This document shows positions 24,030 to 45,005 of a DNA stretch of 64,000 bases, one piece after another; the first letter of the stretch is position 1, and every line of letters starts with the position of its first letter. Origin of the DNA: an uncultured Gammaproteobacteria bacterium (GTDB lineage Bacteria; Patescibacteriota; Microgenomatia; Levybacterales; UBA12049); NCBI GenBank assembly GCA_964416505.1, contig CAYQEJ010000003.1, forward strand, positions 54,034 through 118,033, read 5' to 3'. The translations under genes were made by a program, and so were the position numbers. Under the pieces are notes generated by a model. It was not told the DNA's origin. It saw nothing but the letters and a program-made list of their open reading frames with translations, and did not search any database.

Positions 24030-24455
24030 TTATTTAAAACCACTTTTTAGGTTAGTTAAATCAGTTTTTTTAAGATTATATTCGTTAAGTAATTTAGATA
24101 ATTCTGTATTCGCCTCTAAAGTCCTAGATCTATTGGAAAGAAATAAGAAAGAGTCATTTAAATAATCATAACTGAGTTCGAATAGATCGGATTTATAAGG
24201 TAGGCTTCTGATCAATACTCCCAACTGTTTAGGTGCTATTTGAGCATCAGCATCTTTTTGTGTAACACCTAAAGAATCAGTGTGATAAGGTTCTTTTTCT
24301 GTCTCATCAAAGACTGGTGTAGGAGCAATGCTGCTAATATTTTTAGTTTCTTTAGGAAGAACTGTGACCACGATGCTTATAAAAATAAGATAAAAAATTA
24401 TGGCTAAAAATATTAAAAATAGAATCTTATGTTTTTTTAAAAGTTCTTTAATCAT
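24030..24455 (-). CDS. Bitopic membrane protein (N-terminal TM anchor, about 100-aa extracytoplasmic domain); last gene of the T4SS-like operon
   Basis: TM helix ILFLIFLAIIFYLIFISIVVTVL. Overlaps the upstream gene by 8 nt. Its stop is 1 bp from the dnaN stop, so the two are convergent. Confidence 0.5.
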   Translation of the reverse strand: MIKELLKKHKILFLIFLAIIFYLIFISIVVTVLPKETKNISSIAPTPVFDETEKEPYHTDSLGVTQKDADAQIAPKQLGVLIRSLPYKSDLFELSYDYLNDSFLFLSNRSRTLEANTELSKLLNEYNLKKTDLTNLKSGFK

Positions 24456-25224
24456 TTTTTCTTATTGGAACTAATGACATAAACCTCGTGTCATATCTGT
24501 TCATTTGTGTTAGGGACGGGTGATAAATAAAATTACTTGAATTACATTTATCGCTTGCGGAAGCCACTATAAGTGTTTCGTTTTTTGGATTAGCGCCTAG
24601 CACAACAAATGTATGACTACATCTTCCTTCGCATCCGACCCAATTTTCTGCTGAGCCTAGGATATACCACCCTTGATTTGTAAATCTTTGAATTGCTTCA
24701 AGATCAGCTTTAGTCAAATGTCTTCTGTTATCTCTGTCTCTGCCTCCTTCTATAAGATCAACTTGCGCTCTTTTTAACCCTATGCTTCGTAAAAAGACAG
24801 TATCTACAATTGAAAATGGACTAGTTCCTACGTATCCATAAGCATTTCCCGGTTGCCAAGCAAAACCTTTTTCGGTAAATAATTCAGCTACTGTAGCAGG
24901 ATTTGCAACTCCTCGATCACTGGGGCGAGCTTTTAGTCCATAAGTCGCAAGTATCATGGCTATAGATGATGGTCCACAGCCTGAGCTGCCGACCGTACCA
25001 GTATCATAACGATTATTACCCCATGGAGAATCAAATTGACAGTAGTAAACAAAATTCCCGGGTTTTGTACCCGTGCTGGTGTCTCCTCCGAAATCTGATC
25101 CTTTACCAACCACCGTGGTTACAGTGTCGTGAGCTATACCCGTTTGCTGTGCAAAAGCAGGAGACAGAATAATTAAGCTGAGAAGTAAATTAATTAGGAA
25201 AAGAAGAGAGAGGATTTTCTTCAT
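24448..25224 (-). CDS. Secreted papain-like cysteine peptidase (Peptidase_C39_2/CHAP-like), candidate cell-wall hydrolase of the T4SS-like cluster
   Basis: Signal peptide MKKILSLLFLINLLLSLIILSPAFA. YYCQF...SSGCGPSSIAMILATYG contains the candidate catalytic Cys in the C39-like context, and ...CSHTFVVLG contains the candidate His. Confidence 0.55.
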   Translation of the reverse strand: MKKILSLLFLINLLLSLIILSPAFAQQTGIAHDTVTTVVGKGSDFGGDTSTGTKPGNFVYYCQFDSPWGNNRYDTGTVGSSGCGPSSIAMILATYGLKARPSDRGVANPATVAELFTEKGFAWQPGNAYGYVGTSPFSIVDTVFLRSIGLKRAQVDLIEGGRDRDNRRHLTKADLEAIQRFTNQGWYILGSAENWVGCEGRCSHTFVVLGANPKNETLIVASASDKCNSSNFIYHPSLTQMNRYDTRFMSLVPIRKND

Positions 25225-25262
25225 TTAACAATATTTAAGCACAATTGATTTAGTCTTACAAC

Positions 25263-25784
25263 CTAACACCCAGAAGGGAGTGGGTTAAATTGGGAATTTC
25301 TTGGAAAATCATTTGCAGCAAAGGCACCTAGATAAAACCTTACTGGTAAATTGCATAGTCCGTTTTTTGAAAAACCTTGATTAAGTAGATAATTTTCTGC
25401 TTCAGTTTTGGCTAGATCAATGTCTTTTGAATTAATTTCTATTTCGAAGTCATCTAGAGACTCAACGTATTGGATAATAAAATTTTCATTTTGAAAAATA
25501 ACTCCTGATTTGTTGTCTAACGGCGTTAAGATTTTGGCTTTTGCATCTAGGTCTGAAGGAGGAAGTGGCTGTCTAGTAGTTAGTTTTATTAAGGATTTTC
25601 CTAAGCTTCCAGGTTCATAGTTAACAACTGGCTTTGTGTATATTTGCTTCGAAGGGGTAGGTATTGGTTTTTGCGATGATCTTAAGTCGGAAAGAGTAGA
25701 TGCTATAGCAAGTAAAACAAATATTACTACTAAAATAACCGCAGAAATCAGATATATTATATTTTTTTTATTCTTTAAGTTCAT
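25263..25784 (-). CDS. Bitopic membrane protein (VirB8-like topology)
   Basis: N-terminal TM IIYLISAVILVVIFVLLAIA followed by an approximately 140-aa external domain. No sequence motif to confirm a VirB8 fold. Confidence 0.4.
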   Translation of the reverse strand: MNLKNKKNIIYLISAVILVVIFVLLAIASTLSDLRSSQKPIPTPSKQIYTKPVVNYEPGSLGKSLIKLTTRQPLPPSDLDAKAKILTPLDNKSGVIFQNENFIIQYVESLDDFEIEINSKDIDLAKTEAENYLLNQGFSKNGLCNLPVRFYLGAFAANDFPRNSQFNPLPSGC

Positions 25785-25785
25785 C

Positions 25786-28053
25786 TTACCTTATTGTATT
25801 ATATTCACCGTTTGTGCAAAGTTCAGGTGCGCCTCTGCAAACATTGGTTTCGCATTGCCAATAATCGAAATCTAAATTTCTTGGTTCAAGCACGATTTTT
25901 TCTCTGTCTACAGCTACTTGTATTTGTTCTTTCCACTCCACATTACCTCTATTGTAGGCAAGAGGATTGCGGTTGGAGCCCATTTGAAAAGCTCCCCAGG
26001 CTCCTTTGGGATCGGGTGTGCAAACGCTTCCATCGCTATTACATCTAAAATATGCATTGGGTCTATGGCCGCTTTCACATTCAGAAAGTAAGTACCAAAA
26101 TCTATAGTTTTTTGGATCTTTTGACTTAAGTTCATTCCCGAAATCGTTAAGTGTATAGTTGCAGCTTGGGTCTCCGAAATTTCCTTTAGGTGCGTTTACG
26201 GAATTATACTTTCCTGAGCAACTATCTCCAGTAGCAGGAGGTCCTCCGCCTCCAGTAGCGCCTAGAATAGAAATTGACACATCAAAAGTGCTATCGTCTT
26301 GGGGACGAAGAATTAAAGTAAAAGAATACATGGTTTGTTCGCCTGTTTCTGAAGGCGAATTATCCTTTAATCGCCAAGTGATTGCGCTTGAGTTTGTAGG
26401 AGATCTGTATATCCCCGTTGTGCCGCTCGGAATCAAAGTAGTCTCTTCAGGAATATCTGCGCTTACTGAAATATTTTCGATAGGGTCTACTGCATTTCTT
26501 TTATCGTAAATAACGATTATTTCATATCTCAAATCAACGCCATTGGGAGAAGATTGCGGGCCATAAATTGTATAGCTTATTCCTGCATAGCGGCTATTTG
26601 TGATTGGTTTTGTTAGATCTGAAGTGTTAAAGAAGATTTGGCCTATTATCACAAATATAAAGATTATTAGAGCTATTATGATAACAGCTGGTAAGCTAAT
26701 GGTGGTAACCGTAATCCCAATTCCTGTAATAATTTTTGCTAATACTAGAGAAATAACGCTTATCGTGGCAGCGGCTGCACTTGTAGCCACGCCTATTATT
26801 GCAGAAATTGCTGTTGTTAAAAAACCTGCGATGGAAGATAAAAGTGAGCCAAGTATTGATCTTGCAAACAGTCTTTCTAAATATCCAATTGGATCTAAGA
26901 ATTTTTTTAATTTAAAAAACTTTTTGTTTAGGTTCTTAAATCTATTAATTGATTTAGATTTAGACAGACGGTTACCTAGTCTTGTTTTGAAAAATCTTTT
27001 GTATAGCCAGTTTTGATTTTGAGTTGATTGTTGCGATTGGGATTTGCTTTGGTTGGTAGTTTGAGGAGCGTTAGCGAAATTATTTTGCAATACTGGGAGG
27101 GAGGCAGGAATAGGAGAAGTTAATGGCTGTGGTTTCGTAATCTGTGTTGGGGAAGGTTTGTTTCTTCTAAGTAAACGGGATGTGATCCCAGGATTTTGAT
27201 AGGTATATGTTATGTCTTTCTGCCTTTTCCTTTCGATAGCTGATGTTAGCTCTGGGTCATTGTATTGTGCTGCCCATTTTTTTGCATTTTGTGGAGAATA
27301 TGTGACCAGATGTTCTTCAATTTCTTCCTGCGCATTGGAAATTGCTCGTGATCGATCTAAATATCTAGCGCTTGGATCTCTACTATCATAATCTTTTGCT
27401 GTTTTTTCGATATATCTTCGTCTAGTTTCTAGATAATCAGAGTAAGTAAGATTTTTGTTTTCTAGGCTTACTTTCTCAAAAGCCAAGTCGAGTTGGGTAT
27501 TTTGAGGGTCTTTGGAAAGCCATTCGCGTGCCTTTTTAGGATCGGCTCTAACTAATAATTCATGGTATTCCCGTCGTGCTCTTTCATATGCCTCCAGTCT
27601 GCTTTTTGCAACAGGAGCATTTCTTTTTGAGGGATTTTGATTATATCTCCTGTATTCTTCCTCCCACTTTTTTGCAAAATACTCAGCATATCTATCTGCT
27701 TCTTTTTGAGATTCTTCATATGACCCCCCGCGTCTTAAAAGGTTAACACCTGCGATAATAGATCCTAAAGCTAAGCTCTGTGGATTTCTGGGGCTGGAGT
27801 TTTTATCTTTATCTTTTGACTCAATTTCTATATTTGCTCCCTGCGATCGTTGAGTATTTATGTCTTCAATGCCTTGCCAAATTCCTTGAGTATTTAAAAT
27901 CTGATTTTCAAATAAAATTTTTTCAAATGATTGCCTATTTCCAGCTCTAAAAGCATTAAATAATTGATTTTGGTCGAATCTGGATAAATTTCCAAGTTGT
28001 GAGGCTGCCCACTTAGCATTTTCTAGGCTTAATTGTTTCTCGTTTTCATCCAT
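25786..28053 (-). CDS. Polytopic membrane protein with a C-terminal Rpf/transglycosylase-like (lysozyme-fold) domain; VirB1-analogous peptidoglycan hydrolase fused to a channel-like membrane core
   Basis: 755 aa. About 390 aa of cytoplasmic Q/S/R-rich N-terminus, then at least 3 TM helices (residues about 395-470). The Cys-rich external C-terminus ends with LLSECESGHRPNAYFRCN...KGAWGAFQMGSNRNPLAY...WKEQIQVAVD...WQC, matching the CESG...G.FQ...EQI.VA...W..C pattern of Rpf-type transglycosylase domains. Confidence 0.5.
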   Translation of the reverse strand: MDENEKQLSLENAKWAASQLGNLSRFDQNQLFNAFRAGNRQSFEKILFENQILNTQGIWQGIEDINTQRSQGANIEIESKDKDKNSSPRNPQSLALGSIIAGVNLLRRGGSYEESQKEADRYAEYFAKKWEEEYRRYNQNPSKRNAPVAKSRLEAYERARREYHELLVRADPKKAREWLSKDPQNTQLDLAFEKVSLENKNLTYSDYLETRRRYIEKTAKDYDSRDPSARYLDRSRAISNAQEEIEEHLVTYSPQNAKKWAAQYNDPELTSAIERKRQKDITYTYQNPGITSRLLRRNKPSPTQITKPQPLTSPIPASLPVLQNNFANAPQTTNQSKSQSQQSTQNQNWLYKRFFKTRLGNRLSKSKSINRFKNLNKKFFKLKKFLDPIGYLERLFARSILGSLLSSIAGFLTTAISAIIGVATSAAAATISVISLVLAKIITGIGITVTTISLPAVIIIALIIFIFVIIGQIFFNTSDLTKPITNSRYAGISYTIYGPQSSPNGVDLRYEIIVIYDKRNAVDPIENISVSADIPEETTLIPSGTTGIYRSPTNSSAITWRLKDNSPSETGEQTMYSFTLILRPQDDSTFDVSISILGATGGGGPPATGDSCSGKYNSVNAPKGNFGDPSCNYTLNDFGNELKSKDPKNYRFWYLLSECESGHRPNAYFRCNSDGSVCTPDPKGAWGAFQMGSNRNPLAYNRGNVEWKEQIQVAVDREKIVLEPRNLDFDYWQCETNVCRGAPELCTNGEYNTIR

Positions 28054-28055
28054 AT

Positions 28056-29999
28056 TTACTTATTTTGGTCAAAATCAGAGAAGCCAGGTGCAATTTGCGG
28101 CGTCTGCGGAGGAACAAAACCTGATTGATTCATGGGACTAATGGGCGCTGGGTTTTGGTAGGGTGCTGAAAAAGAAGTCTCATTCATTATTCTTTGCTCC
28201 TCCTGTCTTCTTAAAAGTTCTTCTGGATTTGAAGTAATAATCTTGTGTTCAAACGGAGCAGATATCACTTTCATGGAAACATGACTTTGTCCTGCAAAAA
28301 ATAAACCCTCTCCGACGTTTGCTGATAAAAGTAGTTGTTTTTCCTGCTGTGTTAAATAGAAAATTTGAGACACTAAATCTATCTCAGTAGGGCTTTGTTT
28401 TAAAAGCATCTGAATGGACGAGTTTGAAAGAATTGCCTTTCCATAATCGGTGGAGAGAAAGTCCTGAACATCCTGGGTAGCTGTTGTTAGTGCAAGATAA
28501 TATTTCCTAGCTCTTTTAGCTATTCCATGGATGAAAGAGGCAGAGTCTTGGTATTTCATAAGGTACCAGGCCTCATCAAGCACTAATAGTCTTTTTTTAA
28601 GATCTTTTCTAACTCTCGTCCAAATGAAATCAAGAATTATATGCATAGCCACGGGGCGAAGCTGATCTTCGAGTCCTCTAGTTGAAAATGCAGTGAATGG
28701 ATTTTTTATATCAAAGTTTGATTGTTGGTTAAAAATTCCAGCCATGCTTCCTTTTATAAATTTCTCAAGCCTTAGTGCTAGGTTTTTAGAAATTTCATCC
28801 TCGTTTCCCAAGAGAACTTTATATAGATCTTCCATGAGAGGAGGCTTCTTTGTTTGTGTAGATGGGTCTGGTGTAATTCCTTTTTGCCTGTAAACTTCTA
28901 CTAATGCTCGATCAAGAATTGCGTCATGCGCTGCATCAAGTTCTCCCATAACGATTCTAAGAAGAGCATGGAGCGAAAGGATTTTTAATCCTAATTCATT
29001 TTCTCCTTGTTCATAGATACCAGATAAGTCGAATGGATTAATCTTGATAGGAGAGGCGGGGGTGAACTCAATATATTCTCCGCCGAGGGTTCTCGTGAGT
29101 TCCCCATATTCTCCTTCAGGATCAATTACTATGATTTCAGCGCCAAACATAAACTGTCGCATAAGCTCCAGCTTGATAAGGTAAGATTTTCCTGCTCCAG
29201 ATTTTCCGAAAACCACTTCGTTTGCATTTTCTAGAGAGTATCTGTCAAAAATGATTAATGAATCATTTAGCTTATTTAGTCCATACATTACTCCTTTATC
29301 TTGGGTGAGAGTGGCAGATGTAAACGGAAACGTTGAAGCGAGGGAAGTGGTGTCCATGTTTCTGGTCAAGAATAATTGATCGTCTGCAATTGGAATGCTT
29401 GATTTAAAACCAGCATCCATTTGAAGGGTTGCGGGTTTAGCTAGGACAAGAATTGAAGCCAGAAGTGTTTTGAGTCTTTTTGATGCCTCTTCAAGGTCCT
29501 CTTTTGTATCAGATATTAATGTAATGTAAAGGCTAAATTGAAAAAATCTTTCTATTCCCTTTGCGAGTTCTTCCTGTACCGAAAGTGCGTCTTCTAGAGA
29601 AGCTTGGACGGTAGGATCTAAGACTTTATTATTCTGTGTTTGTTCCATAAGGGTTGCTTCCATTTCGCCAATTTTTCTTCTTAGATCTTGGAGGGCATCT
29701 GGTGAAGATGTGGGATAGCAGAACATAGAAAGATTTAGTGAATGTTCAAAATCAATAAGAGGTTCAAGCCAATTAGGTGAAACAAATCTGGGGTATCCCA
29801 CAACGAAAAAAGTTTTGTGATATTTTTCTCCAATTCTAATATGCCCAAAATCAACTTCGATAGAAGAAGGGGCTATGATATCCGTAACAGAATTCATGCC
29901 TCTTTCGATTCTTTTTATTCCCTCATTTGCAGGGTGAATCGCTGCGCCAGGAATAGGATTAGTTTTTAAGCTTTGATCTTTTTTGTTAAATAGTTTCAT
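28056..29999 (-). CDS. VirB4/TrbE/CagE-family type IV secretion ATPase
   Basis: 647 aa, no N-terminal TM. N-terminal CagE_TrbE_VirB-type region (IAPSSIEVDFGHIRIGEKYHKTFFVVGYPRFVSPNWLEPL). Walker A VFGKSGAGKSYL, Walker B LLVLDEAWYLM, and C-terminal LTTATQDVQDF, typical of VirB4. Confidence 0.75.
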   Translation of the reverse strand: MKLFNKKDQSLKTNPIPGAAIHPANEGIKRIERGMNSVTDIIAPSSIEVDFGHIRIGEKYHKTFFVVGYPRFVSPNWLEPLIDFEHSLNLSMFCYPTSSPDALQDLRRKIGEMEATLMEQTQNNKVLDPTVQASLEDALSVQEELAKGIERFFQFSLYITLISDTKEDLEEASKRLKTLLASILVLAKPATLQMDAGFKSSIPIADDQLFLTRNMDTTSLASTFPFTSATLTQDKGVMYGLNKLNDSLIIFDRYSLENANEVVFGKSGAGKSYLIKLELMRQFMFGAEIIVIDPEGEYGELTRTLGGEYIEFTPASPIKINPFDLSGIYEQGENELGLKILSLHALLRIVMGELDAAHDAILDRALVEVYRQKGITPDPSTQTKKPPLMEDLYKVLLGNEDEISKNLALRLEKFIKGSMAGIFNQQSNFDIKNPFTAFSTRGLEDQLRPVAMHIILDFIWTRVRKDLKKRLLVLDEAWYLMKYQDSASFIHGIAKRARKYYLALTTATQDVQDFLSTDYGKAILSNSSIQMLLKQSPTEIDLVSQIFYLTQQEKQLLLSANVGEGLFFAGQSHVSMKVISAPFEHKIITSNPEELLRRQEEQRIMNETSFSAPYQNPAPISPMNQSGFVPPQTPQIAPGFSDFDQNK

Positions 30000-30643
30000 A
30001 TTTTCATTTTTCCAGTAACCATGGGAGTTATGATATCTTTGGATACTCCCGAGCTGCTTTCGTTGTTATAGATCTCATAAAAAAGCCTAATTAGTTCGTC
30101 TTTTTCCAAAATTTTTGATTTCAAACCGGATCTTAAAAGCTCTTGGATTATAGATGAAGATTTGGAAGTTAATAAATTTTTTGCATCTCTTATTATCGCA
30201 TCTCTGTCTCTTGAGTTTGCAATTCCTCCAGCTCCTTTTTCAAGATACGAGTACGAAATGGAGATATAAAATTTTTTATCAAGAACTGTATTTTTTTGAA
30301 CAAGTTGAGAAACGAATTCTTTATACATTCTAATGTGTTCTGAGAATGTTGGGTTAGATGCTTTCGCAGCTTGTTCCTCGAGTAGTTTTTGATAATTACT
30401 GATATCGAGTTTTCTGCTCAAAATTACTATTTGAATAGGAAAAGATAGGGAGTTGATGAGCGAAGCATAAGAGAGAATTTTTATTTCTTGTTCTTCTTTG
30501 GATTGTAATGCAAAATTTGTCGCTGTAACTTCTATAACCATACACACACTTCCTCCGGACATAAGAACTAGGCTGTCTATAATGTCCTCAATCTCTATAA
30601 ACTTTTGTGTTGTCGCTATGGTTTTTGGGGCAGAGTTTTTCAT
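29996..30643 (-). CDS. Hypothetical cytoplasmic protein (215 aa) translationally coupled between the VirB3-like and VirB4-like genes
   Basis: No TM or signal. Overlaps the VirB4-like start by 4 nt and abuts the upstream gene. No recognisable family. Confidence 0.45.
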   Translation of the reverse strand: MKNSAPKTIATTQKFIEIEDIIDSLVLMSGGSVCMVIEVTATNFALQSKEEQEIKILSYASLINSLSFPIQIVILSRKLDISNYQKLLEEQAAKASNPTFSEHIRMYKEFVSQLVQKNTVLDKKFYISISYSYLEKGAGGIANSRDRDAIIRDAKNLLTSKSSSIIQELLRSGLKSKILEKDELIRLFYEIYNNESSSGVSKDIITPMVTGKMKI

Positions 30644-31942: not shown

Positions 31943-32070
31943 AATAAATACAAATAAGAGCTCTTTGCTTCATACTAGAATATAACGTGAAAAATAGCGT
32001 TTCAAGGCTATCAAAATGAATCAATTTTTGAGGATTTTGAAGCTAATTGTGAAAACAACTTTTTAGACAC

Positions 32071-32700
32071 TTAATTTTGACAAGTGTAGATTATATCTCC
32101 CGCATGATTAAGCTTTTTGCATGTTCTGTTAAGAGCACAGTATCCATGAGGATGCGCTTCGCTGCAAGGAAATTGGCATGTGTAGTGACTACCTGTATCG
32201 TTTGGCACGCAGATTCTACCCGTAGGGCATATTCCGTCCGGATGTTGATTGTTGCATCTATAAGCGACGCTATCGGGAACACATTGATCAAATCCAAATG
32301 TTGAAATGCAGGCGTTTACTCCAGTTAGTCTTATTATGAAAGGTAATATTATTACTGATAATAAAATTAAGGTTAATCCCAAAATAGAAAAAGTAAGTGT
32401 TTTTTTGGCCCCATCTGCTTTTTTTGCATCACCTCCAGAGCTAACAAATTTAAATCCGGAAATTATAATCATGGCTACTGCGACAATTCCTGCGAAAATA
32501 AACACCCAGTAAATTACGTTTCCTAGGATAATTGGTAGGCAGTTAAGCGTTGCTACCTGGTTCGATCCGCCAGTTAGACATCCAGATCCTCCAAGAGGGG
32601 TAAAATTTGCAGCAAAAACATTTGGGGTGAAAAAAAGAAATCCAGAAATTAACAAAAAGAAAAATAAAAACTTTTTCACTGATAAATAAAAGCGTAACAA
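32071..32700 (-). CDS. VirB2/TrbC-like pilin paralog 1 with a Cys-rich C-terminal extension
   Basis: Signal peptide, hydrophobic helix, loop SGFKFVSSGGDAKKADGAKK, second hydrophobic helix, then a 75-aa tail containing 11 Cys. Confidence 0.5.
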   Translation of the reverse strand: MLRFYLSVKKFLFFFLLISGFLFFTPNVFAANFTPLGGSGCLTGGSNQVATLNCLPIILGNVIYWVFIFAGIVAVAMIIISGFKFVSSGGDAKKADGAKKTLTFSILGLTLILLSVIILPFIIRLTGVNACISTFGFDQCVPDSVAYRCNNQHPDGICPTGRICVPNDTGSHYTCQFPCSEAHPHGYCALNRTCKKLNHAGDIIYTCQN

Positions 32701-32721
32701 AGAAGATGTTAAATTACAAGA

Positions 32722-33141
32722 TTAACGAGGAGCTACTAGTGTAGGGAGAGTGAAGCTGCTGTTAAGTAGGCTTCCGATTCCGAAGAATTGTAATGCGAGG
32801 TTGATGATGAAGTAGGAAAGAAATACTAGTACTAATCCTACCAGTGCAGCTACGATCATTCCTCTTGCAGCATCTACTTTTCCTTTATCTCCACCTGATG
32901 TAATCCATTTAATTCCACCATATACTAGAAAACCTAAAGCTAGCAATACAGCCACTATAAATAATAGAAGAATTATTGAAGAAACTAGTGGGCCAATTCC
33001 TGCGTTACCCATATTGCAAAGAGTTGTAAATCTTCCGCCTACGCAGAGATCAAGTGTACCGCCACCTACAGCAGCAAAAGTTTTAGGGGTAAACGTTAAG
33101 AAAGAAGCGATCGATAACGATAGAGCAGTTAATTTTTTCAT
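32722..33141 (-). CDS. VirB2/TrbC-like pilin paralog 2
   Basis: Signal peptide ...TFA|AVGGG, TM1, loop WITSGGDKGKVDAARGMIVAA, and TM2. This is the classic conjugative-pilin topology. Confidence 0.55.
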   Translation of the reverse strand: MKKLTALSLSIASFLTFTPKTFAAVGGGTLDLCVGGRFTTLCNMGNAGIGPLVSSIILLLFIVAVLLALGFLVYGGIKWITSGGDKGKVDAARGMIVAALVGLVLVFLSYFIINLALQFFGIGSLLNSSFTLPTLVAPR

Positions 33142-33195
33142 TACTTATTTGATCGTATTGTGTTTTTAATTGTTTGTCAAGTACCTTTTCTGAAT

Positions 33196-33513
33196 CTAGA
33201 CTATTTGTCCAATTCCTAAAAACCAACCTAAAACATTTATTATCAAAAAAGAGGAAAGAGCAACTAGAAGTCCTATAACTGCATATGTAATTTTTTTTCT
33301 TGCAGCGTCTACTTTTCCTTTATCTCCACCTGATGTAATCCACTCAATGCCTCCCCAGACAAGAAAAGCGAGTGAGGCGAGTGTTATTAATACAAAAGCC
33401 CAGGTAAGACCATTTGTAATTACGTTTTTAAGAGTATTGAGGCCGCCTGTGGGCATCCCTGCGACAGGTTCTATAGAATATGAGCCGGGTAAGTTAAATG
33501 CAATTTTTTCCAT
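33196..33513 (-). CDS. VirB2/TrbC-like pilin paralog 3
   Basis: Shares the near-identical loop WITSGGDKGKVDAARKKITYAVIG with paralog 2, and has two flanking hydrophobic helices. Confidence 0.55.
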   Translation of the reverse strand: MEKIAFNLPGSYSIEPVAGMPTGGLNTLKNVITNGLTWAFVLITLASLAFLVWGGIEWITSGGDKGKVDAARKKITYAVIGLLVALSSFLIINVLGWFLGIGQIV

Positions 33514-34517
33514 TATCTCCCAAATCCTGGTAATCCTAGAATATCACGAGTTATTAATTCAAGTATAACTAAAGAAAATATAATAAATATAAATCCTACT
33601 ATTGCTGCCGTAAGCTGTTCTCTGGCATTTTTTACCTTATCAGGATCACCTTGGGATGTCATAAGTTTGTATCCGGCGACCAAGATTATTATGAATATTA
33701 TTCCGCCTCCAATACTTAAAACAAATCCAAGTGCCCATCTGGTAAAGTCAGTTGCTCCAGTGCTAACCATTCCAAATGCTGTTCTGACTCTTAAACATCC
33801 GCGCGCGTCATTATAGAAATTTCCATTTTTTTCGCAAGGTAAAGATAGAGGAGCATTCTTGGCATAATTTATGACTGAAGGATCATACAGGCTTCCGGCT
33901 ACGCATGTGCCTGTTCTACAGTCTCCTGTGGTAAGCGAATTGCAATAAAAACCCTCAGAGCACGTTCCCCTTACTCTCCCTCCTTTAGAACAGATTTTAT
34001 AATCGTTTGATGTTGGATCTATTTCGCAAGAATTATTTTGTCCTGGGCCCGTGGGTTCAGGGGAAGGATTTTGACCACCAGCCGTCCTAACTACTATGCC
34101 ATTGCTTCTGCAGGATGGTTGACAAGTGCCGTCTTCTTTGTAAACGCAGAGTCTAACCGTATATGTGCCAGCGCCTAAATTTCTTAGATCTCCTAGGGTA
34201 TGATCAGTCTCGCTAAATGTAACACCTGAATCTGGGTTTATAAGAATATCTTCAGATACGCATCCTTCTTGAAATTTTCCAGCTTTTGTTAATGAATCAA
34301 GAGGGCATGGGCCAGTATTTGAAGTATTAAATGCTACATAAAGACGTGTTCCTGCATCGCGGATATTGGTGAACGTAATGCTTTTAAATTTTCCTACTTG
34401 AAGTTGAGTGGGATCAGTCGTAAAAGTACAAGCATCATCTGGCCCGGCATATGCAATGGTAGTTTTTAGAGCGAAAAAAGCAATGAAAATTAACAAGGGA
34501 AAAATTATTTTCCTCAT
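33513..34517 (-). CDS. Secreted Cys-rich domain protein with a C-terminal VirB2/TrbC-like pilin module (paralog 4)
   Basis: Signal peptide, then an approximately 230-aa Cys-rich extracellular domain, then a pilin-like TM1-loop-TM2 with a degenerate MTSQGDPDKVKNAREQLTAAIVGF loop. Stop and start overlap with paralog 3. Confidence 0.5.
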   Translation of the reverse strand: MRKIIFPLLIFIAFFALKTTIAYAGPDDACTFTTDPTQLQVGKFKSITFTNIRDAGTRLYVAFNTSNTGPCPLDSLTKAGKFQEGCVSEDILINPDSGVTFSETDHTLGDLRNLGAGTYTVRLCVYKEDGTCQPSCRSNGIVVRTAGGQNPSPEPTGPGQNNSCEIDPTSNDYKICSKGGRVRGTCSEGFYCNSLTTGDCRTGTCVAGSLYDPSVINYAKNAPLSLPCEKNGNFYNDARGCLRVRTAFGMVSTGATDFTRWALGFVLSIGGGIIFIIILVAGYKLMTSQGDPDKVKNAREQLTAAIVGFIFIIFSLVILELITRDILGLPGFGR

Positions 34518-34552
34518 AATTTTATCGTAGGCAAAACTAGAATTAATTGCAA

Positions 34553-35875
34553 CTATGGAGTGAATTTGAATCCGCGGCCTTTAACTGTTTGGATATGTGT
34601 TGGGGAAGAAATGTCTTTTTCAATTTTCTTTCTTAGTCTAAAAATAAGTTGATCTAAAGCTTGCTCTGTAACCCCGGCAGTAGAGGATAAATCGCCCCAA
34701 ACTGAGGATATGATTTCGTCTCTTTCAACTATTTTTTCAGGATTTAAAATAAAAAATTTAAGTAATTTAAACTCTGAAGAAGTAAGTCCTTCAGACAAAA
34801 CTATTTCGCCAATTCTAATTTCCTTAGCCGCTTCATCAAATATTATCTTTTCTTGTTTTTCGGAAATTTCTTTTTTAGCAAATTCTTCCAAGAGAGGAAC
34901 TGCAAATTTATTATTTTTAATAAGTCCTACAGCCACTAAATGAGATGATTCAGAAGCTTTTTTATTTGCGATTAGACTTTGTTCGTATGGAGAGAGAGAA
35001 TTCCAGATTTCGTAAAGAACTGATTTTACTTTAGAATTATTTTCTAAAAATTCTCTGACATCATCTTTTTTATCATTTAAGATACAGGCTTCAATGCTAA
35101 CAAGCCATAATTTACCTAATTCTCCTGTTAATTCACTAATCTTTTCAAGCGTTTTTTTATCCACATTTTTTCCACTATTTTTCTTTAGATAATCAAGTCT
35201 AAATTGTTGAATTTTTTCATCTCCTAGAGATAGGTAAACTAAATTTCCTGTTAAAAATTCATAAAAGGAAGTAATTATTTCATTTCCTGCGGTTTCTTCT
35301 AATGGCCGAGAAAGAGGAAATATGCAGGAAAAACGATATTTTGCTCTATCTCTCAATACTCTTAAGTTATCAAAGAAGATAGGCTCAAGTACTCCAACGT
35401 ATTCTTCGAATCTATCAAAAAGTAGAACTATAGTTAATTCTTTTTCAAGACATAAATAGTCAATCGTTTTTTTTAGACCCTGGAAGATCACAAGTTCATC
35501 GCCTGATTTTAGACTCTCATCAAATATTTTTTTAAGAGCTTTATGCTCTTCGTTCATTTTTCTCTCCGCTAGAGAATCCAAGATTTCCAAAAACATATAC
35601 TTTGTAGATTCGGAAAGTGGCCTTTTTTTAATTTCTGCAAAATTCATCATTACGAAATGAAACCACTTTGTGTTTTCTTTAAGGTGAAGTTCGCGAGCTT
35701 TTGAATTGTATGCGAGAATTCTTAAGATGTTTGATCTTCCAACTCCTGGAAGAGAAATTACCTGAGCAGAATTTCCAACTCTTACAAAAGAAAGAATTTT
35801 CTCTATCTCAGAATATCTTGCGTCTTCAGGGTAAAGTGATTCGAAGTGTTTTGGTTCCATAGCTAGGTAAAACAA
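34553..35875 (-). CDS. Transcriptional regulator: N-terminal STAND/AAA-like ATPase domain, C-terminal OmpR/PhoB-type winged helix (Trans_reg_C)
   Basis: P-loop-like VISLPGVGRSNILRIL. The C-terminus ERDEIISSVWGDLSSTAGVTEQALDQLIFRLRKKIEKD....IQTVKGRGFKF matches the Trans_reg_C/CadC wHTH consensus. The domain order is the reverse of SARP/AfsR regulators. Confidence 0.55.
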   Translation of the reverse strand: MFYLAMEPKHFESLYPEDARYSEIEKILSFVRVGNSAQVISLPGVGRSNILRILAYNSKARELHLKENTKWFHFVMMNFAEIKKRPLSESTKYMFLEILDSLAERKMNEEHKALKKIFDESLKSGDELVIFQGLKKTIDYLCLEKELTIVLLFDRFEEYVGVLEPIFFDNLRVLRDRAKYRFSCIFPLSRPLEETAGNEIITSFYEFLTGNLVYLSLGDEKIQQFRLDYLKKNSGKNVDKKTLEKISELTGELGKLWLVSIEACILNDKKDDVREFLENNSKVKSVLYEIWNSLSPYEQSLIANKKASESSHLVAVGLIKNNKFAVPLLEEFAKKEISEKQEKIIFDEAAKEIRIGEIVLSEGLTSSEFKLLKFFILNPEKIVERDEIISSVWGDLSSTAGVTEQALDQLIFRLRKKIEKDISSPTHIQTVKGRGFKFTP

Positions 35876-35939
35876 TTGTAATTGTTTTATAAGGTTTATA
35901 TCAAGCTCAGATGCCTTATTTTTTCTAAACTAACGCCAT

Positions 35940-38900
35940 ATGACACACGAAATAATTATGAGACCAGGTGAATTGACAGTGCAAAGGGGACAATCTACAC
36001 TGAATAAGGAGCAAAGTATTTTTATGCCAGACGCAGGAATACAAACAGAAGGAGTTCAGCCAGTAAAACCAGCTATTAGAGCTGAGGTTTTACCTTTACC
36101 TAGAGTAACAACCAGCTTGTCTTTGGAAGGACTAACCCCGACTCAGCGTGCTGACGCTTTAAGGACAACAAGGCTTCTCGAAGGGCTCGGTTTGAAGCCT
36201 GACCAAGTTACTTCCAAAGGAAGAACAGAGCAAAAAGCAGGTCAAGTTGTTGAGAATGCACAGCTTGATAGTGAAAATCCGGAAGCATCAACTAAATCGC
36301 AGGAAATTTTAGGAAAAGGAGAATTAACAGATCAGGATAGAGCTGATCTTTTTGGATTAAACGCTGGTAGAATCGCAAAAGCAGAAGAGCTACTTAAAGA
36401 TAGTCTCGGAAGAGAATTAACTGATAAAGAAAAAGAAGGAATCTTACGCGCTCATTTTGTGGGAGCAGGGGAAAAAGGAAAAAACGGAGAAGAATCCGGA
36501 GTGTTTAATGTAACACGAGAGCAGCTTTCGGAAAAAGCAAAAATATTAAAAGATGCTGGATTTGATCAGGAGCAAAGAAGGGAAATCATAGAATCAGGTC
36601 TTACTCAAATGAATCCACCACAGCCTCTTACTCCTCTGGAGGCTAGAAACCAGGCAATTCTGGCCTTAGGGAATTTAACATTAACTGGAAAGCTTTTGGA
36701 AATCAGAGATAACATTTTAAGACTTCATAATGCTGCAATTGGAAATCCAGCTGCAGGTATTCCCGTGATTAATCCAGATGGTATTACCTCTGACGCACTA
36801 ACAGCGCTTCATAGAGAATTTTATAATAAATTTAATAAAGTACTTAATAATCCAAATACACCACCGCCACCCGAAGTTCTTCTTTTTGAAAGAAGACTTA
36901 AAGAAATTGGTGATCTTGATGCAAGAACACACGAGCAGCGTGGTCCACAAGAAGATTTCCATAATGAATATGATTTCATTAGGCTGCAATTGAATAGTAC
37001 TCCTCAATTATTGCCCAATGGAGCTCCAAATCCCCAGAGGGCAATTTTGGAAGAAGAGTTAGTTTTGAGTGTAGAAAATTTTGTGGGACATGGCATAAAC
37101 CCATCCAGTGATAGTATTTATGACTCTACTCTTAAAAAAATAGTGCAAACTGATACTTTGGTAAGTGATCCTGATCTTCAGGCAAGAATTCAGTCATCTG
37201 TTCAGAGGTTGGTTATTAGAATTGTGGGAATGCCACTTCAGGACGATGTGGGAGATTTTGATATTGGGTTTTATGGTGGAATTAATTTTTCAGCAATTAA
37301 AAATTTACTTTATTCACAGTCATTGGATCCTGCATATTTTAGATCTCAGCAAGAATACAATGCCTTTAGCAACTTGAGAAGAGACCAGAACTTAAGCGTA
37401 GAAGGTCTGTACCATTCTATGAGAATAGTTCATGAAATCAATAAAATGATTGTTCAGAATCAGCTTGATGCAGCAAATCAATCGGCTCCAAACTTAGGTC
37501 CTGAAGCACTGCAAATGCTTGCCAAGACAAAAGGTGCTGGCGCGATATTTAGAATTATGGAATCTGGTCTTTTGGAACTATTGGCAAAAGATGGATACAT
37601 GGCAAAGGGTTCGTATGATGCTCTGATGGGCAAGGCAATGAGTCAACAAACTGGAAGATATGATAATTCTCAAACGTCATCGATAGCTTCACAAGTTAAA
37701 GAAATGATTAGCGCTTTAAGATCATTGCCTCCTGGTATTATTCAGGCAGGAGATTTACAGGAGTTAAGAGACATGGAAAATTGGGAAATTGATTTAGCAT
37801 TTAATCTTGGAAGAAATATGTATAACGTTTTACATAGGTCTGCGGAGCTGGCTTCATGGGGAAGGCTTCCGAAAGGACTCAAGCTTTACACAAATTCTGT
37901 TTTTGGAGGATTTAGAAATATTTATAATCCTGCCCTTCATGTTATAGAAAGGTTTAAGCCCGGCGAAGGTAGAGGAGGATACAGATTATTCCAGATGTTT
38001 ATGGATGCGATGCAAAGACGAAGAGAAAGAGAGGGATTTGGTCATATGGGGCTTAAAAAACTTCATGGAGATTTAATTAAGTATTTTGAACTGCCTTCGA
38101 TTGCAGGTATGAGAGGGTATGTCTCATCTTGGAAAGCGAACGAAGGAGTTCTTAAAGTAATCGAAACCGGTTACGCTCCAAGAGGTAGATTTGCAGATCT
38201 AGATATATTTTCGCAAGTACAACTTAGAGAAGCAGGTTCTCAGATTTTTGATAGAAATGGAGGGGTAATTACTGGAAAAGGAATTGGATATTTCCTGGAT
38301 GTAGATGCTCTTACTTTTAAAGATGGTCAAGGGAGAACATATTCATGGAAAGATTTTTCAGATGCTGAGCAAGCTGATTATTATAGATCAATTTTCTTTG
38401 AGCCAAATACAGGTGGACATGGTCATGATCCAGTGTTAAAAAGAGATATAAACATAGGATTGGGAACTCTTTATAAAACAGCACTTGGGCCAGCAGGGGG
38501 ACATGAAGCACATAAAAATCATCATCATTTAAATGAGGTTAAAGAAGAAATAAGGCGTCTTATCTGGGAAAGAGTAGGAGCGGATAATCCCCTTGCAGTT
38601 TTACCGTATCTACATAGGCTTGAATTTAGTGGTGATCATAAACCAGTTGATGTGGGCCATCACGGGACGCCGCACTTAGTAGATGTTGCAGGCACAAAAT
38701 TGCTTGAAGATATTTATGATAGGCCTGGTTGGCAAGATTTTCAAGTGAAGCTTATGCTTCTAAATGAATGGAGAATGTCAAAAATTAAACAAGGAAATAC
38801 TAATTACACATTGCAGGACGCAATAAATGAAATGGATACAGCAATGGGTGTTCAAAGAGATCCTGTGACCCATGCAATTATTCAGGGGGGAAATCAAAGC

Positions 38901-39653: not shown

Positions 39654-39657
39654 TTAG

Positions 39658-41262: not shown

Positions 41263-41337
41263 TAATTTAAGTTTGATCCATTTTCACTTTTATGTCAAGT
41301 TGGCTTCAAGCTCAAAAGCTGGTAAAATATATAGAGT

Positions 41338-41424
41338 GGAGAGGTCGCATAGTGGACTAGTGCGGCTGTCTTGAAAACAGCTGTGGGTGCAAGCCTACCG
41401 CGAGTTCGAATCTCGCCCTCTCCG
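41338..41424 (+). tRNA. tRNA-Ser (anticodon TGA), class II with a long variable arm
   Basis: GGAGAGG acceptor pairs with CCTCTCC. Anticodon stem-loop GCTGT-cTTGAAaa-ACAGC. 22-nt variable arm, T-arm GAGTTCGAATCTC. 87 nt; CCA not encoded. Confidence 0.85.
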
Positions 41425-41425
41425 C

Positions 41426-43864
41426 TTATCTCTGTCTAGGGTTTGAGTTTATCCCCCCGCTCACTTGACCCGTAGTGCTTCGTATAGAATTTACTAAAAA
41501 TGAAAGTCCAATTGCGCTTAGGAAGTTTGTTAATCCTTCTTTTCTTTTTTTTCTTTTGATGATTTCATGCTCTATTCTATATGCTTCATAAGCCATTTGC
41601 GCTAAGGTAATCTCCTCAGCGTTCCCTTTAGTCACTGTTTCTTCTAGTCTTTTTTTTGCTGCTTTTAATGCTTCATTTGCGTCTGATTCCATTTCTTCAA
41701 GCTCAGTAGAAAATTCTCTATTTCTTGCTTTTGCTCGAATCTCTGCGCTTTCAAAGGCTTTTTTGTATGCCTCATCGCGCTTTTTAATTGCGTTTGCTAA
41801 TTCTTCATCGGTCATTTTTCTTGGTTTACCATCTCTTTGGGCAGCTTGTTCCAGGAAAATTTCCATATTTAATCTTAATAAAGCTTCTTTTACTTCAGCT
41901 TCTGCTAATCTCCTTTCCAATATCTTTCTGTCCTCAACGCTTAAGGCTCCTTTCATTTCAGCAATTCTTAGTTCTTCCCGTGCTTCATCTACGAGCGTAA
42001 ATACTTTTCTTTCGGGTGCCGCTTGATTATGTTCATCATCGGTATCTGGGAGTTGTTCATCTGTTTCTAATATTTCTTCAGCTTCATCTCTAGGATCAAT
42101 TATTTGATCCACTGGTTGAGATGATGGCTCCATGGCTGTCTCGGTGGCTCCTTCAAGACCTTGTGCAGCTGAAATCATATCGCTAAGTCCCTGATTTGCT
42201 TCAGATGCTTTTATGAATTTTACATTTGGGAATGCCTCTTGAAGTCTTGGAATGGCATCATAATAAGCCTCGTGTACGATTACTCCAGCTATTCCGCCAT
42301 CTTTTAAAGATTGGCCTGGTTTTCCTAGTACAATAAAGCTTCCGTTATCTTTAACGCTTATTGCTGCAGCATTTGGTTTTGAATCAAGATTGGCTGTAAA
42401 GAAACTGGCTTCTTGATCTATGCCATTTGTTAGAAGGTTATTAAGACTTACTAAATCCTGCGTGGTTCCCTTTGCAATCCCATGTGCATCAAATTGAGAA
42501 GCGAGTTCAGGAGGGATTGATCTTCTGGTATCAACTAGCATATAAGGGTCATATGGGAATTCTTCGCCATCAACTAATTCATTTGGATGTTCTTCGATGA
42601 ATCTCTGTGCTTTTCCTGCCATTGCTTGAACTTCATCGGAAGACAATCCAGTTCGATTCGCTTCTGCTGTAGTGGGTGCTGGAACAGATTCTGGCGCTGT
42701 AGCTGAAGTTGCATCTCTTTTTGCTTTTCTTGCGATTGCTTCAGAGAGGCCATGATGTCCTTTTTCGGCATATGCTTTGGATTTTTCAGGATACCGCGCT
42801 AGATATGCATCCCATCCATTCATTTCTTCAATATCTCGTGCAGCTTGAGCTTTCTCTCTCCTACTTGAAGGATCAGCGCTTTGAACTTCAGGGTGTGCAT
42901 TTGCTTTTTCTATAATTTGTGCTTGAAACCTGGTAAGTTCTGGATCTAAATCTGGGTGGTCATAGATATGATCTGGTCCGATGGTTTCCAATCTTGGTGG
43001 ACCAGCGGTAAATCCTTCGGGGAGATTTACGTTTCCTGCTGATTGTGGGGATGTCTCTGGCAAATTTGATGGGTTTATCATTTCCCCGAGACCTTCTGTC
43101 ATTTGATCTGCTCTAATAAATTTTACTCCTGGGTATGCTTCTTGAAGCCTTGGAATAGCATCGTAAAAAGCTTCATTTACTAAAACTGCTGCTATTTCAC
43201 CTCTGGGGTTTTCTGGCGTTTCAATCTTGCCGTCGGGTTTACTAAGGATGATAAAATTTCCCGTATCATATGCTAGGCCACCCATTGCAGATGCAACTTG
43301 AGCTTCAATTTCTGGTGGAACTTTTAATGGTACAGTATGGAAATCACGAGCCTGGTCAATACCGGTAGTTAAAAAAGTATTTAAAGCCGCAAGTTGGTCT
43401 TTGTATCCTCCCTTTGCAATTCCATGCGCATCAAATCTTTGACCTATCTCAACAGGAAGTTGACCTCTCACTCCTACCATGAGATCATCTTGTTCATATT
43501 TAATTTCCTGAATAAATCCAGTTGATTCTGGTATTGGATGATCTCTTATGAAAACAGCAGCATTAGTTCCTAATTCTTGTATTTCTTGGGGGGAAAGGCC
43601 AGTTCTTGTTACTTCCTGACTTGTTAAGCCTGCTGCGTCAGCTAAGCCTGCGTCTATTCTTGGCGGATTTGCTGTTAGATCTGCTTCAATCGCTCCCGCC
43701 AATGCTGTGTTAGCTGCAACCTGCGCAGCATCTGGTGCTTTGGGTGCAGTGGGAGCAGCAGGTGCCCTTACTGCTTCTGCTGGCCGTGGTGCTCCATCTG
43801 GCATTCCTGGTGTTGTAGTCATACGTTCTATCATAAGTCTAGATTTATAAGCTAAGTTTGTCAA
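41426..43864 (-). CDS. Large hypothetical protein (812 aa) with an internal tandem duplication of an approximately 330-aa module, a C-terminal coiled coil and a C-terminal TM anchor
   Basis: Repeated blocks: QFDAHGIAKGGYKDQLAALNTFLTTGIDQ / QFDAHGIAKGTTQDLVSLNNLLTNGIDQ, and FYDAIPRLQEAYPGVKFIRADQMTEGLGEMI / YYDAIPRLQEAFPNVKFIKASEANQGLSDMI. GC-richer than surrounding genes. The stop is 2 nt from the tRNA-Ser 3' end. Confidence 0.55.
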   Translation of the reverse strand: MTNLAYKSRLMIERMTTTPGMPDGAPRPAEAVRAPAAPTAPKAPDAAQVAANTALAGAIEADLTANPPRIDAGLADAAGLTSQEVTRTGLSPQEIQELGTNAAVFIRDHPIPESTGFIQEIKYEQDDLMVGVRGQLPVEIGQRFDAHGIAKGGYKDQLAALNTFLTTGIDQARDFHTVPLKVPPEIEAQVASAMGGLAYDTGNFIILSKPDGKIETPENPRGEIAAVLVNEAFYDAIPRLQEAYPGVKFIRADQMTEGLGEMINPSNLPETSPQSAGNVNLPEGFTAGPPRLETIGPDHIYDHPDLDPELTRFQAQIIEKANAHPEVQSADPSSRREKAQAARDIEEMNGWDAYLARYPEKSKAYAEKGHHGLSEAIARKAKRDATSATAPESVPAPTTAEANRTGLSSDEVQAMAGKAQRFIEEHPNELVDGEEFPYDPYMLVDTRRSIPPELASQFDAHGIAKGTTQDLVSLNNLLTNGIDQEASFFTANLDSKPNAAAISVKDNGSFIVLGKPGQSLKDGGIAGVIVHEAYYDAIPRLQEAFPNVKFIKASEANQGLSDMISAAQGLEGATETAMEPSSQPVDQIIDPRDEAEEILETDEQLPDTDDEHNQAAPERKVFTLVDEAREELRIAEMKGALSVEDRKILERRLAEAEVKEALLRLNMEIFLEQAAQRDGKPRKMTDEELANAIKKRDEAYKKAFESAEIRAKARNREFSTELEEMESDANEALKAAKKRLEETVTKGNAEEITLAQMAYEAYRIEHEIIKRKKRKEGLTNFLSAIGLSFLVNSIRSTTGQVSGGINSNPRQR

Positions 43865-43943
43865 TTTTGCTTATAAACTAAGCGCATTATAGATTTGAGA
43901 CAGAAAACAAGCTTGATATTTACCTTATAAGAAATTTATAAAT

Positions 43944-44910: not shown

Positions 44911-44912
44911 AA

Positions 44913-45002: not shown

Positions 45003-45005
45003 GTG

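Follow-up and report, generated by a model that had tools for sequence, protein, structure and literature searches.

A probable Patescibacteria-type type IV secretion gene cluster convergent on dnaN in a Levybacteria (Microgenomates) contig

Gene Content of the Locus

The window analyzed in this study is a 64-kb stretch of contig CAYQEJ010000003.1, and its subject is a gene cluster for a type IV secretion system (T4SS) that ends next to dnaN (Table 1). Seven open reading frames (ORFs) form a minus-strand run from 31942 down to 24030, separated by gaps of, in order, 0, -4, +2, +1, +38, and -8 nt. Further up on the same strand follow four short membrane-protein genes and then a gene for a protein of 440 amino acids (aa). 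Next comes a plus-strand gene for a 1237-aa protein, followed by two minus-strand genes for proteins of 534 and 812 aa. The dnaN stop codon TAG (24026-24028) is separated by 1 bp from the stop codon of the last operon gene (24030-24032). An earlier note on this DNA, made from the sequence alone, had reported the same layout, gene spacing and 1-bp gap, and all were found as described. For comparison, 23 related loci, cited below by their L numbers, were retrieved through homologs of VirB4, VirB6, and the 173-aa protein.

Table 1. Positions of the cluster genes and of neighboring features in the window.
Feature	Position	Strand	Basis or remark
rnpA	20838-21164		origin-side neighbor of the cluster
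dnaA	21251-22765		origin-side neighbor of the cluster
dnaN	22913-24028		origin-side neighbor of the cluster
Bitopic protein, 141 aa	24030-24455	-	one transmembrane helix; last operon gene, tail to tail with dnaN
Putative secreted Cys/His peptidase, C39_2-like, 258 aa	24448-25224	-	signal peptide, weak Peptidase_C39_2 match
Bitopic protein, 173 aa	25263-25784	-	Levybacteria-specific
Candidate VirB1 analog, 755 aa	25786-28053	-	charged N-terminus, transmembrane helices, beta-rich middle, lysozyme-like C-terminus
VirB4 motor ATPase, 647 aa, MPF-FATA/CD1110 type	28056-29999	-	Pfam, NCBIfam, motifs
Predicted VirB4 N-terminal domain, 215 aa, TrsD/TraC-like	29996-30643	-	start overlaps the VirB4 gene by 4 nt
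PrgI/VirB3-like protein, 432 aa	30644-31942	-	membrane hairpin, P/Q-rich linker, coiled coil, C-terminal beta-sandwich
VirB2-type pilin array, four genes	32071-34517	-	PF18895
Pilin, 209 aa	32071-32700	-	Cys-rich C-terminal extension
Pilin, 139 aa	32722-33141	-
Pilin, 105 aa	33196-33513	-
Pilin, 334 aa	33513-34517	-	Cys-rich N-terminal domain
Cluster regulator, 440 aa	34553-35875	-	C-terminal OmpR/PhoB-type winged helix, N-terminal P-loop-like domain
Giant T4SS-associated protein, 1237 aa	35940-39653	+	divergent from the regulator; no signal peptide, transmembrane segment or known domain
Polytopic membrane protein, predicted divergent VirB6/TrbL family, 534 aa	39658-41262	-	TrbL match of a homolog, structure
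tRNA-Ser(TGA)	41338-41425	+	ARAGORN, Rfam; practical right-hand boundary of the cluster
812-aa protein	41426-43864	-	probably outside the system; beyond the tRNA gene, not conserved
comF-like gene	47438-48157
tmRNA gene	49052-49441	-	directly downstream of smpB
smpB	49482-49934
HExxH-bearing peptidase orthologs in related loci	L001:5846-7765; L005:12522-14462; L022:10563-11999; L023:10580-12061

Components of the Secretion Machine

The 647-aa protein was identified as the VirB4 motor. It matched Pfam P-loop_TraG (1.7e-28) as well as AAA_10 and DUF87, and with 388.9 bits it exceeded the threshold (325) of NCBIfam conju_CD1110, an MPF-FATA prototype, the alignment beginning at model position 180. 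Its Walker A (GKSGAGKS, residue 265) and Walker B (LLVLDE, residue 471) motifs were both intact. The identity to homologs from Levybacteria or other Patescibacteria was 70-100%, compared with only 25% to a firmicute VirB4. Between the PrgI and VirB4 genes lies an unnamed gene for a small protein of 215 aa, whose only NCBIfam match was Mbov_0397, the VirB4 of Mycoplasma integrative conjugative elements (ICEs), at model positions 98-281 (1e-10, below the family cut-off). In the 777-aa firmicute VirB4 of L017, residues 17-186 aligned with residues 4-192 of the 215-aa protein and residues 210-750 with the 647-aa protein. The Mbov_0397 match and these complementary alignments indicate that the small protein is, judged by similarity, a detached VirB4 N-terminal domain of the TrsD/TraC-like kind; its orthologs are recorded with PF26593 TraC-like.

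The 432-aa protein carried PF12666 PrgI on residues 8-96 (6.3e-11, 43.1 bits against a cut-off of 27). Moreover, it showed a CarboxypepD_reg match of 3.8e-7 and 30.8 bits, slightly under the cut-off of 32.3. The fusion of PrgI with a beta-sandwich was also found in L018, L020, L022, and L023. In the Woykebacteria loci L010 (6938-9265) and L013 (6232-9006), the hairpin and the beta-sandwich part are two adjacent ORFs, whereas they are fused in Levybacteria.

The four short membrane proteins scored 26.9, 28.9, 36.6, and 41.4 bits with PF18895 T4SS_pilin, all above its cut-off of 26.6. They share a core hairpin in which two transmembrane (TM) segments enclose the motif SGGD..K..A, and three of the four have signal-peptide-like N-termini. 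All four also matched NF045849 (Mbov_0395/MMCAP2_0565, a pilin-like conjugal transfer protein of Mycoplasma ICEs) below its cut-off, with E-values from 3e-8 to 0.03 and over most of the 80-residue model. These matches suggest that VirB2-like hairpins may not be foreign to monoderm MPF-FATA systems.

The 534-aa protein consists of a signal peptide, an external domain of about 150 aa and a helical TM bundle. It had no Pfam, NCBIfam or PDB sequence match of its own. Among its 678 homologs, one that is 42% identical passed Pfam TrbL/VirB6. An AlphaFold2 model was built from 54 sequences (pLDDT 71.9), and in a Foldseek search of the PDB its nine best matches were TrwI/VirB6 chains of the R388 T4SS (E 2.4e-3 to 5.8e-2), the next match following at E 0.65. 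On the TrbL match of the homolog and the model structure together, we accept the protein as a predicted divergent VirB6. In Microgenomatia, VirB6 was found to be "scarce" by profile searches (PMC12102498). A structure-supported VirB6 from a class where such searches mostly failed should be of some use.

Together, these results bear out the VirB4-like ATPase, the PrgI/VirB3-like hairpin, the four VirB2/TrbC-like pilins, and the VirB6/TrbL-like polytopic protein that the earlier note had proposed.

The 755-aa protein is encoded directly after VirB4. Three TM helices were predicted at residues 404-470, and a Cys-rich C-terminal domain spans residues ~600-755. The protein had no Pfam SLT match. 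A profile of the C-terminal domain aligned nearly end to end with residues 27-123 of human lysozyme, a weak match at E 0.15-0.27. In the alignment at E 0.15, the invariant E660 fell on the catalytic Glu35, and the likewise invariant G.FQM fell on GIFQI. Elsewhere in Microgenomates, the large ORF that immediately follows VirB4 has another C-terminal domain, CHAP (L009, 27.9 against 26) or Peptidase_M23 (L016, 38 against 28.7). Because this ORF carries such domains in related lineages, the slot looks like a membrane-anchored VirB1 analog carrying swappable wall-hydrolase modules.

The 258-aa protein matched Peptidase_C39_2 at E 0.0027, and its L001 ortholog exceeded the cut-off (29.5 against 24). 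In this family the Cys of GC.P and the His are invariant, and the protein is probably a cell-wall endopeptidase. Its orthologs of 478-646 aa have an extra N-terminal zincin-like HExxH domain with the motif WSMIHESAHII, which was lost in the window copy. A profile of the Cys-peptidase domain against the PDB gave nothing useful, and single-sequence PDB searches with the 755-, 534-, 258-, 1237-, and 812-aa proteins gave no match. Two different peptidoglycan-hydrolase modules had been proposed before; one is probably the C39_2-like peptidase, and the lysozyme-like match of the other is weak. Two cell-wall hydrolase activities, like the two predicted for the window cluster, are also found in CwlT, PrgK, and TraG.

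The two bitopic proteins complete the tail of the operon. The predicted structure of the 173-aa protein, the one of the two that was modeled, showed no VirB8 (NTF2) fold, and the likeness to VirB8 suggested for the pair was not supported by it. With the product of the gene that adjoins dnaN in L001, L005, L022, and L023, the 141-aa protein shared 24-27% identity, and the profile of the 173-aa family found its L005 copy at E 6e-4, so that it may be a distant paralog of the 173-aa protein. When both proteins were joined into one query, the 173-aa protein yielded only 10 homologs; the 141-aa protein yielded none and was followed only through its position and weak tblastn/HMM matches.

Absence of DNA-Processing Genes

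The scanned ORFs of the window gave no match to a relaxase, a coupling protein (T4CP), VirB11 or an integrase; the scans left out five ORFs of 161-237 aa, and no search was made for an origin of transfer (oriT). The coupling-protein families PF02534, PF12696, and PF10412 had no match in the window and were detected in the positive control L017, a firmicute VirB4 locus from an Oscillospiraceae metagenome-assembled genome (MAG). In the same Pfam scan, this control yielded Relaxase PF03432 at 2.9e-36 and T4CP PF02534 at 2.5e-56, together with a CHAP hydrolase and a sortase. A repeat search of the window returned only the pilin paralogy and an internal duplication in the 812-aa protein; there were no att-like flanking direct repeats and no template/variable repeat pairs. 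Thus, neither an integrase nor flanking att repeats, both features of conjugative elements, were present. These results agree with the earlier observation that VirD4, VirB11, relaxase and integrase are missing, and with the view that this is not an ordinary ICE.

A genuine conjugation system, with its relaxase, T4CP, and oriT elsewhere or too divergent to be recognized, seems very improbable to us. The VirB4 does score above the cut-off of a conjugative-element family, the examined DNA is 64 kb of a genome, and VirD4-like matches distant from virB4 are frequent in Patescibacteria (PMC12102498). However, a survey of 3,035 Patescibacteria genomes counted only 109 relaxases, in 103 of them, and VirB4 relationships track class boundaries, which argues against mobility (PMC12102498). 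Furthermore, the locus is fixed beside oriC and keeps its synteny with housekeeping genes across orders.

Conservation of the Locus

The window has a low GC content (0.30-0.42), and the rest of it is housekeeping DNA with sigA, dnaG, purA/B, ruvB, a class I aminoacyl-tRNA synthetase gene, yidC, rnpA, dnaA, dnaN, smpB with the tmRNA gene, genes of penicillin-binding proteins, and pgk. The minimum of the cumulative GC skew lies at ~21-23 kb, and near-consensus DnaA boxes are clustered at 22809-22841 and 21362-21427; the replication origin was therefore placed at dnaA. Transcription of nearly the whole T4SS cluster runs against the rightward replication fork; only the 1237-aa gene, on the plus strand, is an exception. 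Scans for promoters and terminators were no better than the shuffled expectation (59 vs. 50.6 and 16 vs. 16.2).

The top VirB4 and VirB6 homologs are named Candidatus Levybacteria or Patescibacteria, of the Microgenomates group. In the Levybacteria-type order, a NUDIX gene is followed by the VirB6-like gene, a giant opposite-strand ORF, the winged-helix regulator, 4-5 pilins, the PrgI fusion, the VirB4 N-domain, VirB4, the hydrolase protein, the tail genes, convergent dnaN and dnaA, and rpmH/rnpA/yidC. The flanking smpB, comF-like gene, His-phosphatase, and SpoIID were likewise syntenic. The operon was also convergent on dnaN-dnaA in most Shapiro- and Woykebacteria-type loci, where VirB4 was 53-61% identical. 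The last cluster gene runs 11 bp into the 3' end of dnaN in L022 and L023. The conserved order and the convergence on dnaN across lineages indicate that, on sequence grounds, the cluster is ancestral and vertically inherited and not a recent insertion. The earlier note had left open whether the cluster is conserved at the dnaN locus or variable in relatives, and it is conserved. Its expression "inserted" against dnaN was not sustained: an inserted island was rejected because the cluster keeps its housekeeping neighbors in synteny in Levy-, Shapiro-, and Woykebacteria and because flanking repeats are lacking.

The identity to the closest genome fell into three tiers. VirB4 (83.5%) ranked with the housekeeping proteins DnaA (84.8%), DnaN (83.0%), and SmpB (83.3%). 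A middle tier held VirB6 (71.5%), the regulator (72.6%), PrgI (67%), the VirB4 N-domain (68%), and the pilin cores (57-75%). The fast tier comprised the 1237-aa (42%), 755-aa (42%), 173-aa (49%), and 141-aa (27%) proteins and the peptidase (~30-40%). These values suggest strong purifying selection on the core, with VirB4 as conserved as DnaA and DnaN.

This degree of conservation also bears on the idea that the cluster is what is left of an integrated conjugative element in decay, now without function. The missing DNA-processing genes, the split of VirB4 into two ORFs, and a peptidase gene that is one domain shorter than its orthologs would fit such decay. However, every cluster ORF is intact and tightly coupled, the VirB4 split recurred in all Patescibacteria loci that were examined and has its counterpart in the TrsD/TraC-like family, and Candidatus Southlakia epibionticum ML1 cannot do without the orthologous genes (PMC10633639). 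We regard a functionless remnant as hardly credible.

Some of the loci used here carry unexpected names. L001-L005, L007, L011, and L014-L016 are public MAG contigs with a Levybacteria-type locus, a VirB4 up to 87% identical, and dnaA/dnaN in synteny. Their record titles read "uncultured Gammaproteobacteria bacterium," which, for several contigs, looks like mislabeled taxonomy.

Relationship to Known Secretion Systems

A T4SS of this kind has been described before, and most of the ultra-small Patescibacteria have one beside the origin of replication. In S. epibionticum, the T4SS genes SEML1_0006-0019 are essential for epibiotic growth; the system is Gram-positive-like, has an essential pilin array, and lacks a coupling protein and relaxase (Wang, 2023, PMC10633639). 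In a survey of 3,035 assemblies, 2,407 carried a VirB4 of a monophyletic Patescibacteria clade that is nested in MPF-FATA; the survey also reports TrsD beside virB4, PrgI, VirB2 arrays (abundant in Microgenomatia), very few relaxases, and a site near dnaA, dnaN, rnpA, and rpmH in Microgenomatia and Paceibacteria (Quinonero-Coronel, 2025, PMC12102498). A 2025 review counts the Patescibacteria systems as a new subtype of T4SS, possibly one that assembles a pilus or conduit (PMC12857230).

The window cluster shares with this clade an MPF-FATA VirB4 with a TrsD/TraC-like neighbor (itself a membership feature), PrgI/VirB3, VirB6, and a divergent VirB2 array. In addition, a candidate lysozyme-like gene and a peptidase gene follow virB4, the cluster lacks a relaxase and a T4CP, and it occupies the dnaA/dnaN/rnpA site. 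All sequence-testable membership features of the clade were thus found in the window; the requirement for epibiotic growth is known only in S. epibionticum. There are also differences. The window has four pilins and S. epibionticum six, the VirB6 is of a divergent kind that profile searches seldom picked up in Microgenomatia and was recovered here by structure, and the tail formed by the 755-aa lysozyme-like protein and the 173-aa and 141-aa bitopic proteins is specific to Levybacteria.

We therefore read the cluster, with a probability of roughly 85%, as a chromosomal, vertically inherited Patescibacteria-type T4SS of Levybacteria (Microgenomates), derived from MPF-FATA conjugation machinery and without its DNA-processing half. 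The description of a minimal T4SS of Gram-positive style without relaxase and coupling protein was supported by the present tests and by published work. Several points weigh against our reading. The membership of VirB4 in the Patescibacteria clade was judged from its nearest neighbors, and it is to that extent provisional. The view is limited to 64 kb, and a distant T4CP or relaxase could lie elsewhere in the genome, as VirD4-like matches far from virB4 are common in the group (PMC12102498). The lysozyme assignment of the 755-aa protein, at E 0.15, is statistically weak and at most suggestive. Moreover, no VirB8-like, VirB5-like or adhesin component was recognized in the cluster.

Since the system, the pilin arrays, the absence of relaxases, and the position at dnaA/dnaN are already published, the cluster is a rediscovery and not a new system, and the novelty implied by the earlier note was not supported, its headline features all having been described in papers of 2023-2025. 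Of the envelope machines of these ultra-small bacteria, few have been shown to be indispensable to epibiotic life, and the Patescibacteria T4SS is one. The window adds one more uncultivated example to a system surveyed in ~2,400 genomes and leaves the picture unchanged. The modest gain is a parts list for Microgenomates with VirB6, swappable hydrolase domains after VirB4, hints of Mycoplasma ICE-like pilins, and a giant neighbor of VirB6.

The cluster was also compared with the monoderm conjugative MPF-FATA systems (CTn2 CD1110 type, Tn916, ICEBs1, pCF10, L017). As in these, VirB4 passes the CD1110 cut-off, the order runs from VirB3-like through VirB4 to membrane protein/hydrolase, and there is no outer-membrane core of VirB7, VirB9, and VirB10. 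Unlike these, the window has no matches to relaxase, T4CP, integrase, sortase or adhesin, its VirB4 is split, VirB2-like pilins are present, and the locus is fixed at oriC instead of lying on a mobile element. The likeness to Mycoplasma ICEs consists of the Mbov_0397 match of the 215-aa protein and the NF045849 matches of the pilins, all with scores below the cut-offs; those ICEs, however, are mobile conjugative elements, unlike the window cluster.

Proposed Assembly and Function

VirB2, VirB3, VirB4, and VirB6 with wall hydrolases make up essentially the subset of VirB components for pilus biogenesis, without the half that recruits substrates. The recognition of this subset favors assembly of a pilus or tube. 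In this scheme, the pilins would enter the membrane via Sec or YidC, and the VirB4 motor, docked on PrgI/VirB3 and VirB6, would pull them out of it. The extracted pilins would polymerize into a pilus or tube, while the lysozyme-like protein and the Cys-peptidase would open the cell wall locally and let the tube pass. Lacking a relaxase and coupling protein, the apparatus would not conjugate and might act as a contact organelle of an epibiont or a conduit to its host. The components were identified by sequence or structure, and the assembly logic and function proposed here would follow those of VirB-type systems. Tubular structures have been reported at a parasite-host interface (bioRxiv 10.64898/2026.06.21.733656).

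The cluster probably serves host interaction or uptake. Its cargo may move outward (protein export) or inward (host nucleic acids or nutrients), and the role of Patescibacteria T4SSs is described as unknown in the literature, with uptake being mentioned (PMC11665869). Helicobacter ComB (DNA uptake), Bordetella Ptl, and Brucella VirB all work without VirD4, so that transport other than conjugation, be it uptake or export, has a precedent (PMC12857230, PMC11665869). However, these are diderm systems with a VirB7/9/10 core, VirB8, and another VirB4 lineage, and neither the core nor VirB8 was detected here. Family searches for the ComB-type core and for CedA/CedB gave no match (CedD, 22 bits against a cut-off of 600).

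An importer, which would take up host DNA, RNA or other macromolecules in the manner of ComB or Ced for a cell unable to make nucleotides, is a possible alternative that we hold only tentatively. It is the hypothesis favored in PMC12102498 and PMC11665869, and feeding on RNA has been proposed (bioRxiv 10.64898/2026.06.21.733656). As in ComB, T4CP and relaxase were not found in the window. VirB4 weakly matched NCBIfam CedB at 1.7e-12, but its 46.8 bits are far under the cut-off of 700. A ComF-like gene is present in the window, but it belongs to a syntenic housekeeping block that tRNAs and unrelated genes separate from the cluster. No DNA-binding or nuclease component was recognized in the cluster. 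In S. epibionticum, ComEC is dispensable and the T4SS essential (PMC10633639), which neither proves nor excludes import.

The 1237-aa Protein

The 1237-aa protein had no Pfam, NCBIfam or PDB match, in agreement with its earlier description as a giant protein without domains. Wherever the region is visible (L007, L010, L011, L013, L018, and L020), an opposite-strand ORF of 912-1215 aa abuts the VirB6-like gene. A profile of the giant family detected the ORFs of L018, L020, and L011, and that of L007 was linked via shared representatives. This conserved gene is not discussed in PMC12102498 or PMC10633639. An exhaustive search, for which residues 1-1200 were used as the representative query, found 374 representative relatives, many of which had only a module of ~80 aa in common with the protein. 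This module lies at residues ~140-230, within the stretch of residues ~130-240 (window 36330-36660), and has the consensus AH.VG.GE.GKDG..AG..NYT..QL..KA.ILK.AGF..ERR.LME.G.VG. It was 68-70% identical between close relatives and better kept than the rest of the protein. One to three copies occur at varied positions in many large metagenome proteins, one of which has 12 ankyrin-repeat matches and one of which is from Bacteriovoracales. The module itself had no Pfam match and its profile no match in the PDB, and 35 proteins with the module or from the giant family had no Pfam family in common.

This protein is the candidate substrate of an effector exporter, which would inject proteins into the host without a T4CP. 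The suggestion of effector delivery has been made for related systems (PMC10633639, PMC11665869). It would agree with an ORF that has no Sec signal or TM segment, that adjoins the VirB6-like gene so consistently, and that evolves about twice as fast as its neighbors (42% vs. 72-84%), and with the recurrence of the module in large proteins. However, a coupling protein to recruit cytoplasmic substrates is missing, and the protein has no known translocation signal. The module stands at variable positions and also occurs in the Bacteriovoracales protein, and fast evolution fits a weakly constrained structural protein equally well. An effector exporter is on balance doubtful.

More speculatively, the 1237-aa protein may represent an undescribed, fast-evolving family of ~900-1250 aa whose genes, in the T4SS loci of Microgenomates, always adjoin the VirB6-like gene in back-to-back orientation. 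Its members could be cargo or effectors, or else accessory, lineage-specific parts of the machine that replace the coupling function, and the module could dock such proteins to the T4SS; as a whole this is a long shot. The family could be prioritized as a candidate for cargo or a component in the tractable Saccharibacteria, if a counterpart is present there.

Regulator and Flanking Genes

The regulator matched Trans_reg_C at 1.3e-19 and occupied the same position in L002, L005, L007, L018, and L020. The motifs PGVGRSN (Lys replaced by Arg) and LLFD(R/K)FEE were invariant in six orthologs, all of which start with MEP.HFE; the true start of the window gene is probably the ATG at 35860. An ATPase fused to a winged helix-turn-helix had been proposed for this gene. 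The winged helix was confirmed, while the putative ATPase half is suggested only by the atypical motif pair PGVGRSN/LLFDRFEE.

In related groundwater genomes, genes for 23S_rRNA_IVP/bAvd-like four-helix bundles lie between the T4SS genes (L020/L021, 14527-14898 and 20243-20620; L023, 1659-2036). They adjoin the large pilin and PrgI. There is none in the window, and no reverse transcriptase was seen nearby.

On the right-hand side, tRNA-Ser(TGA) stands between the VirB6 gene and the 812-aa gene. The 812-aa gene had been counted as part of the cluster and was excluded, since it lies beyond this tRNA gene and is not conserved. Only the C-terminal ~180 aa of its product are common to a 475-aa protein of L018, and the gene is absent from L020. 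The protein had no family or PDB match and contains a tandem 195-aa duplication (residues ~81-276 and ~398-577, 42% identity, E 8e-42). The GC content of the gene, 0.40-0.42, is above that of its surroundings. Four tRNA-Ser genes (TGA, GGA, CGA, and GCT) and one tRNA-Arg(GCG) gene lie within 5.5 kb at 41338-46839.

Two ORF starts in the neighborhood appear to need correction. The dnaA ORF of 504 aa is probably over-extended at its 5' end because DnaA of relatives has 444-447 aa. The listed start of an MpaB-like ORF (48096-49085, minus strand) overlaps the tmRNA gene by 34 nt, and this ORF therefore probably starts further downstream.

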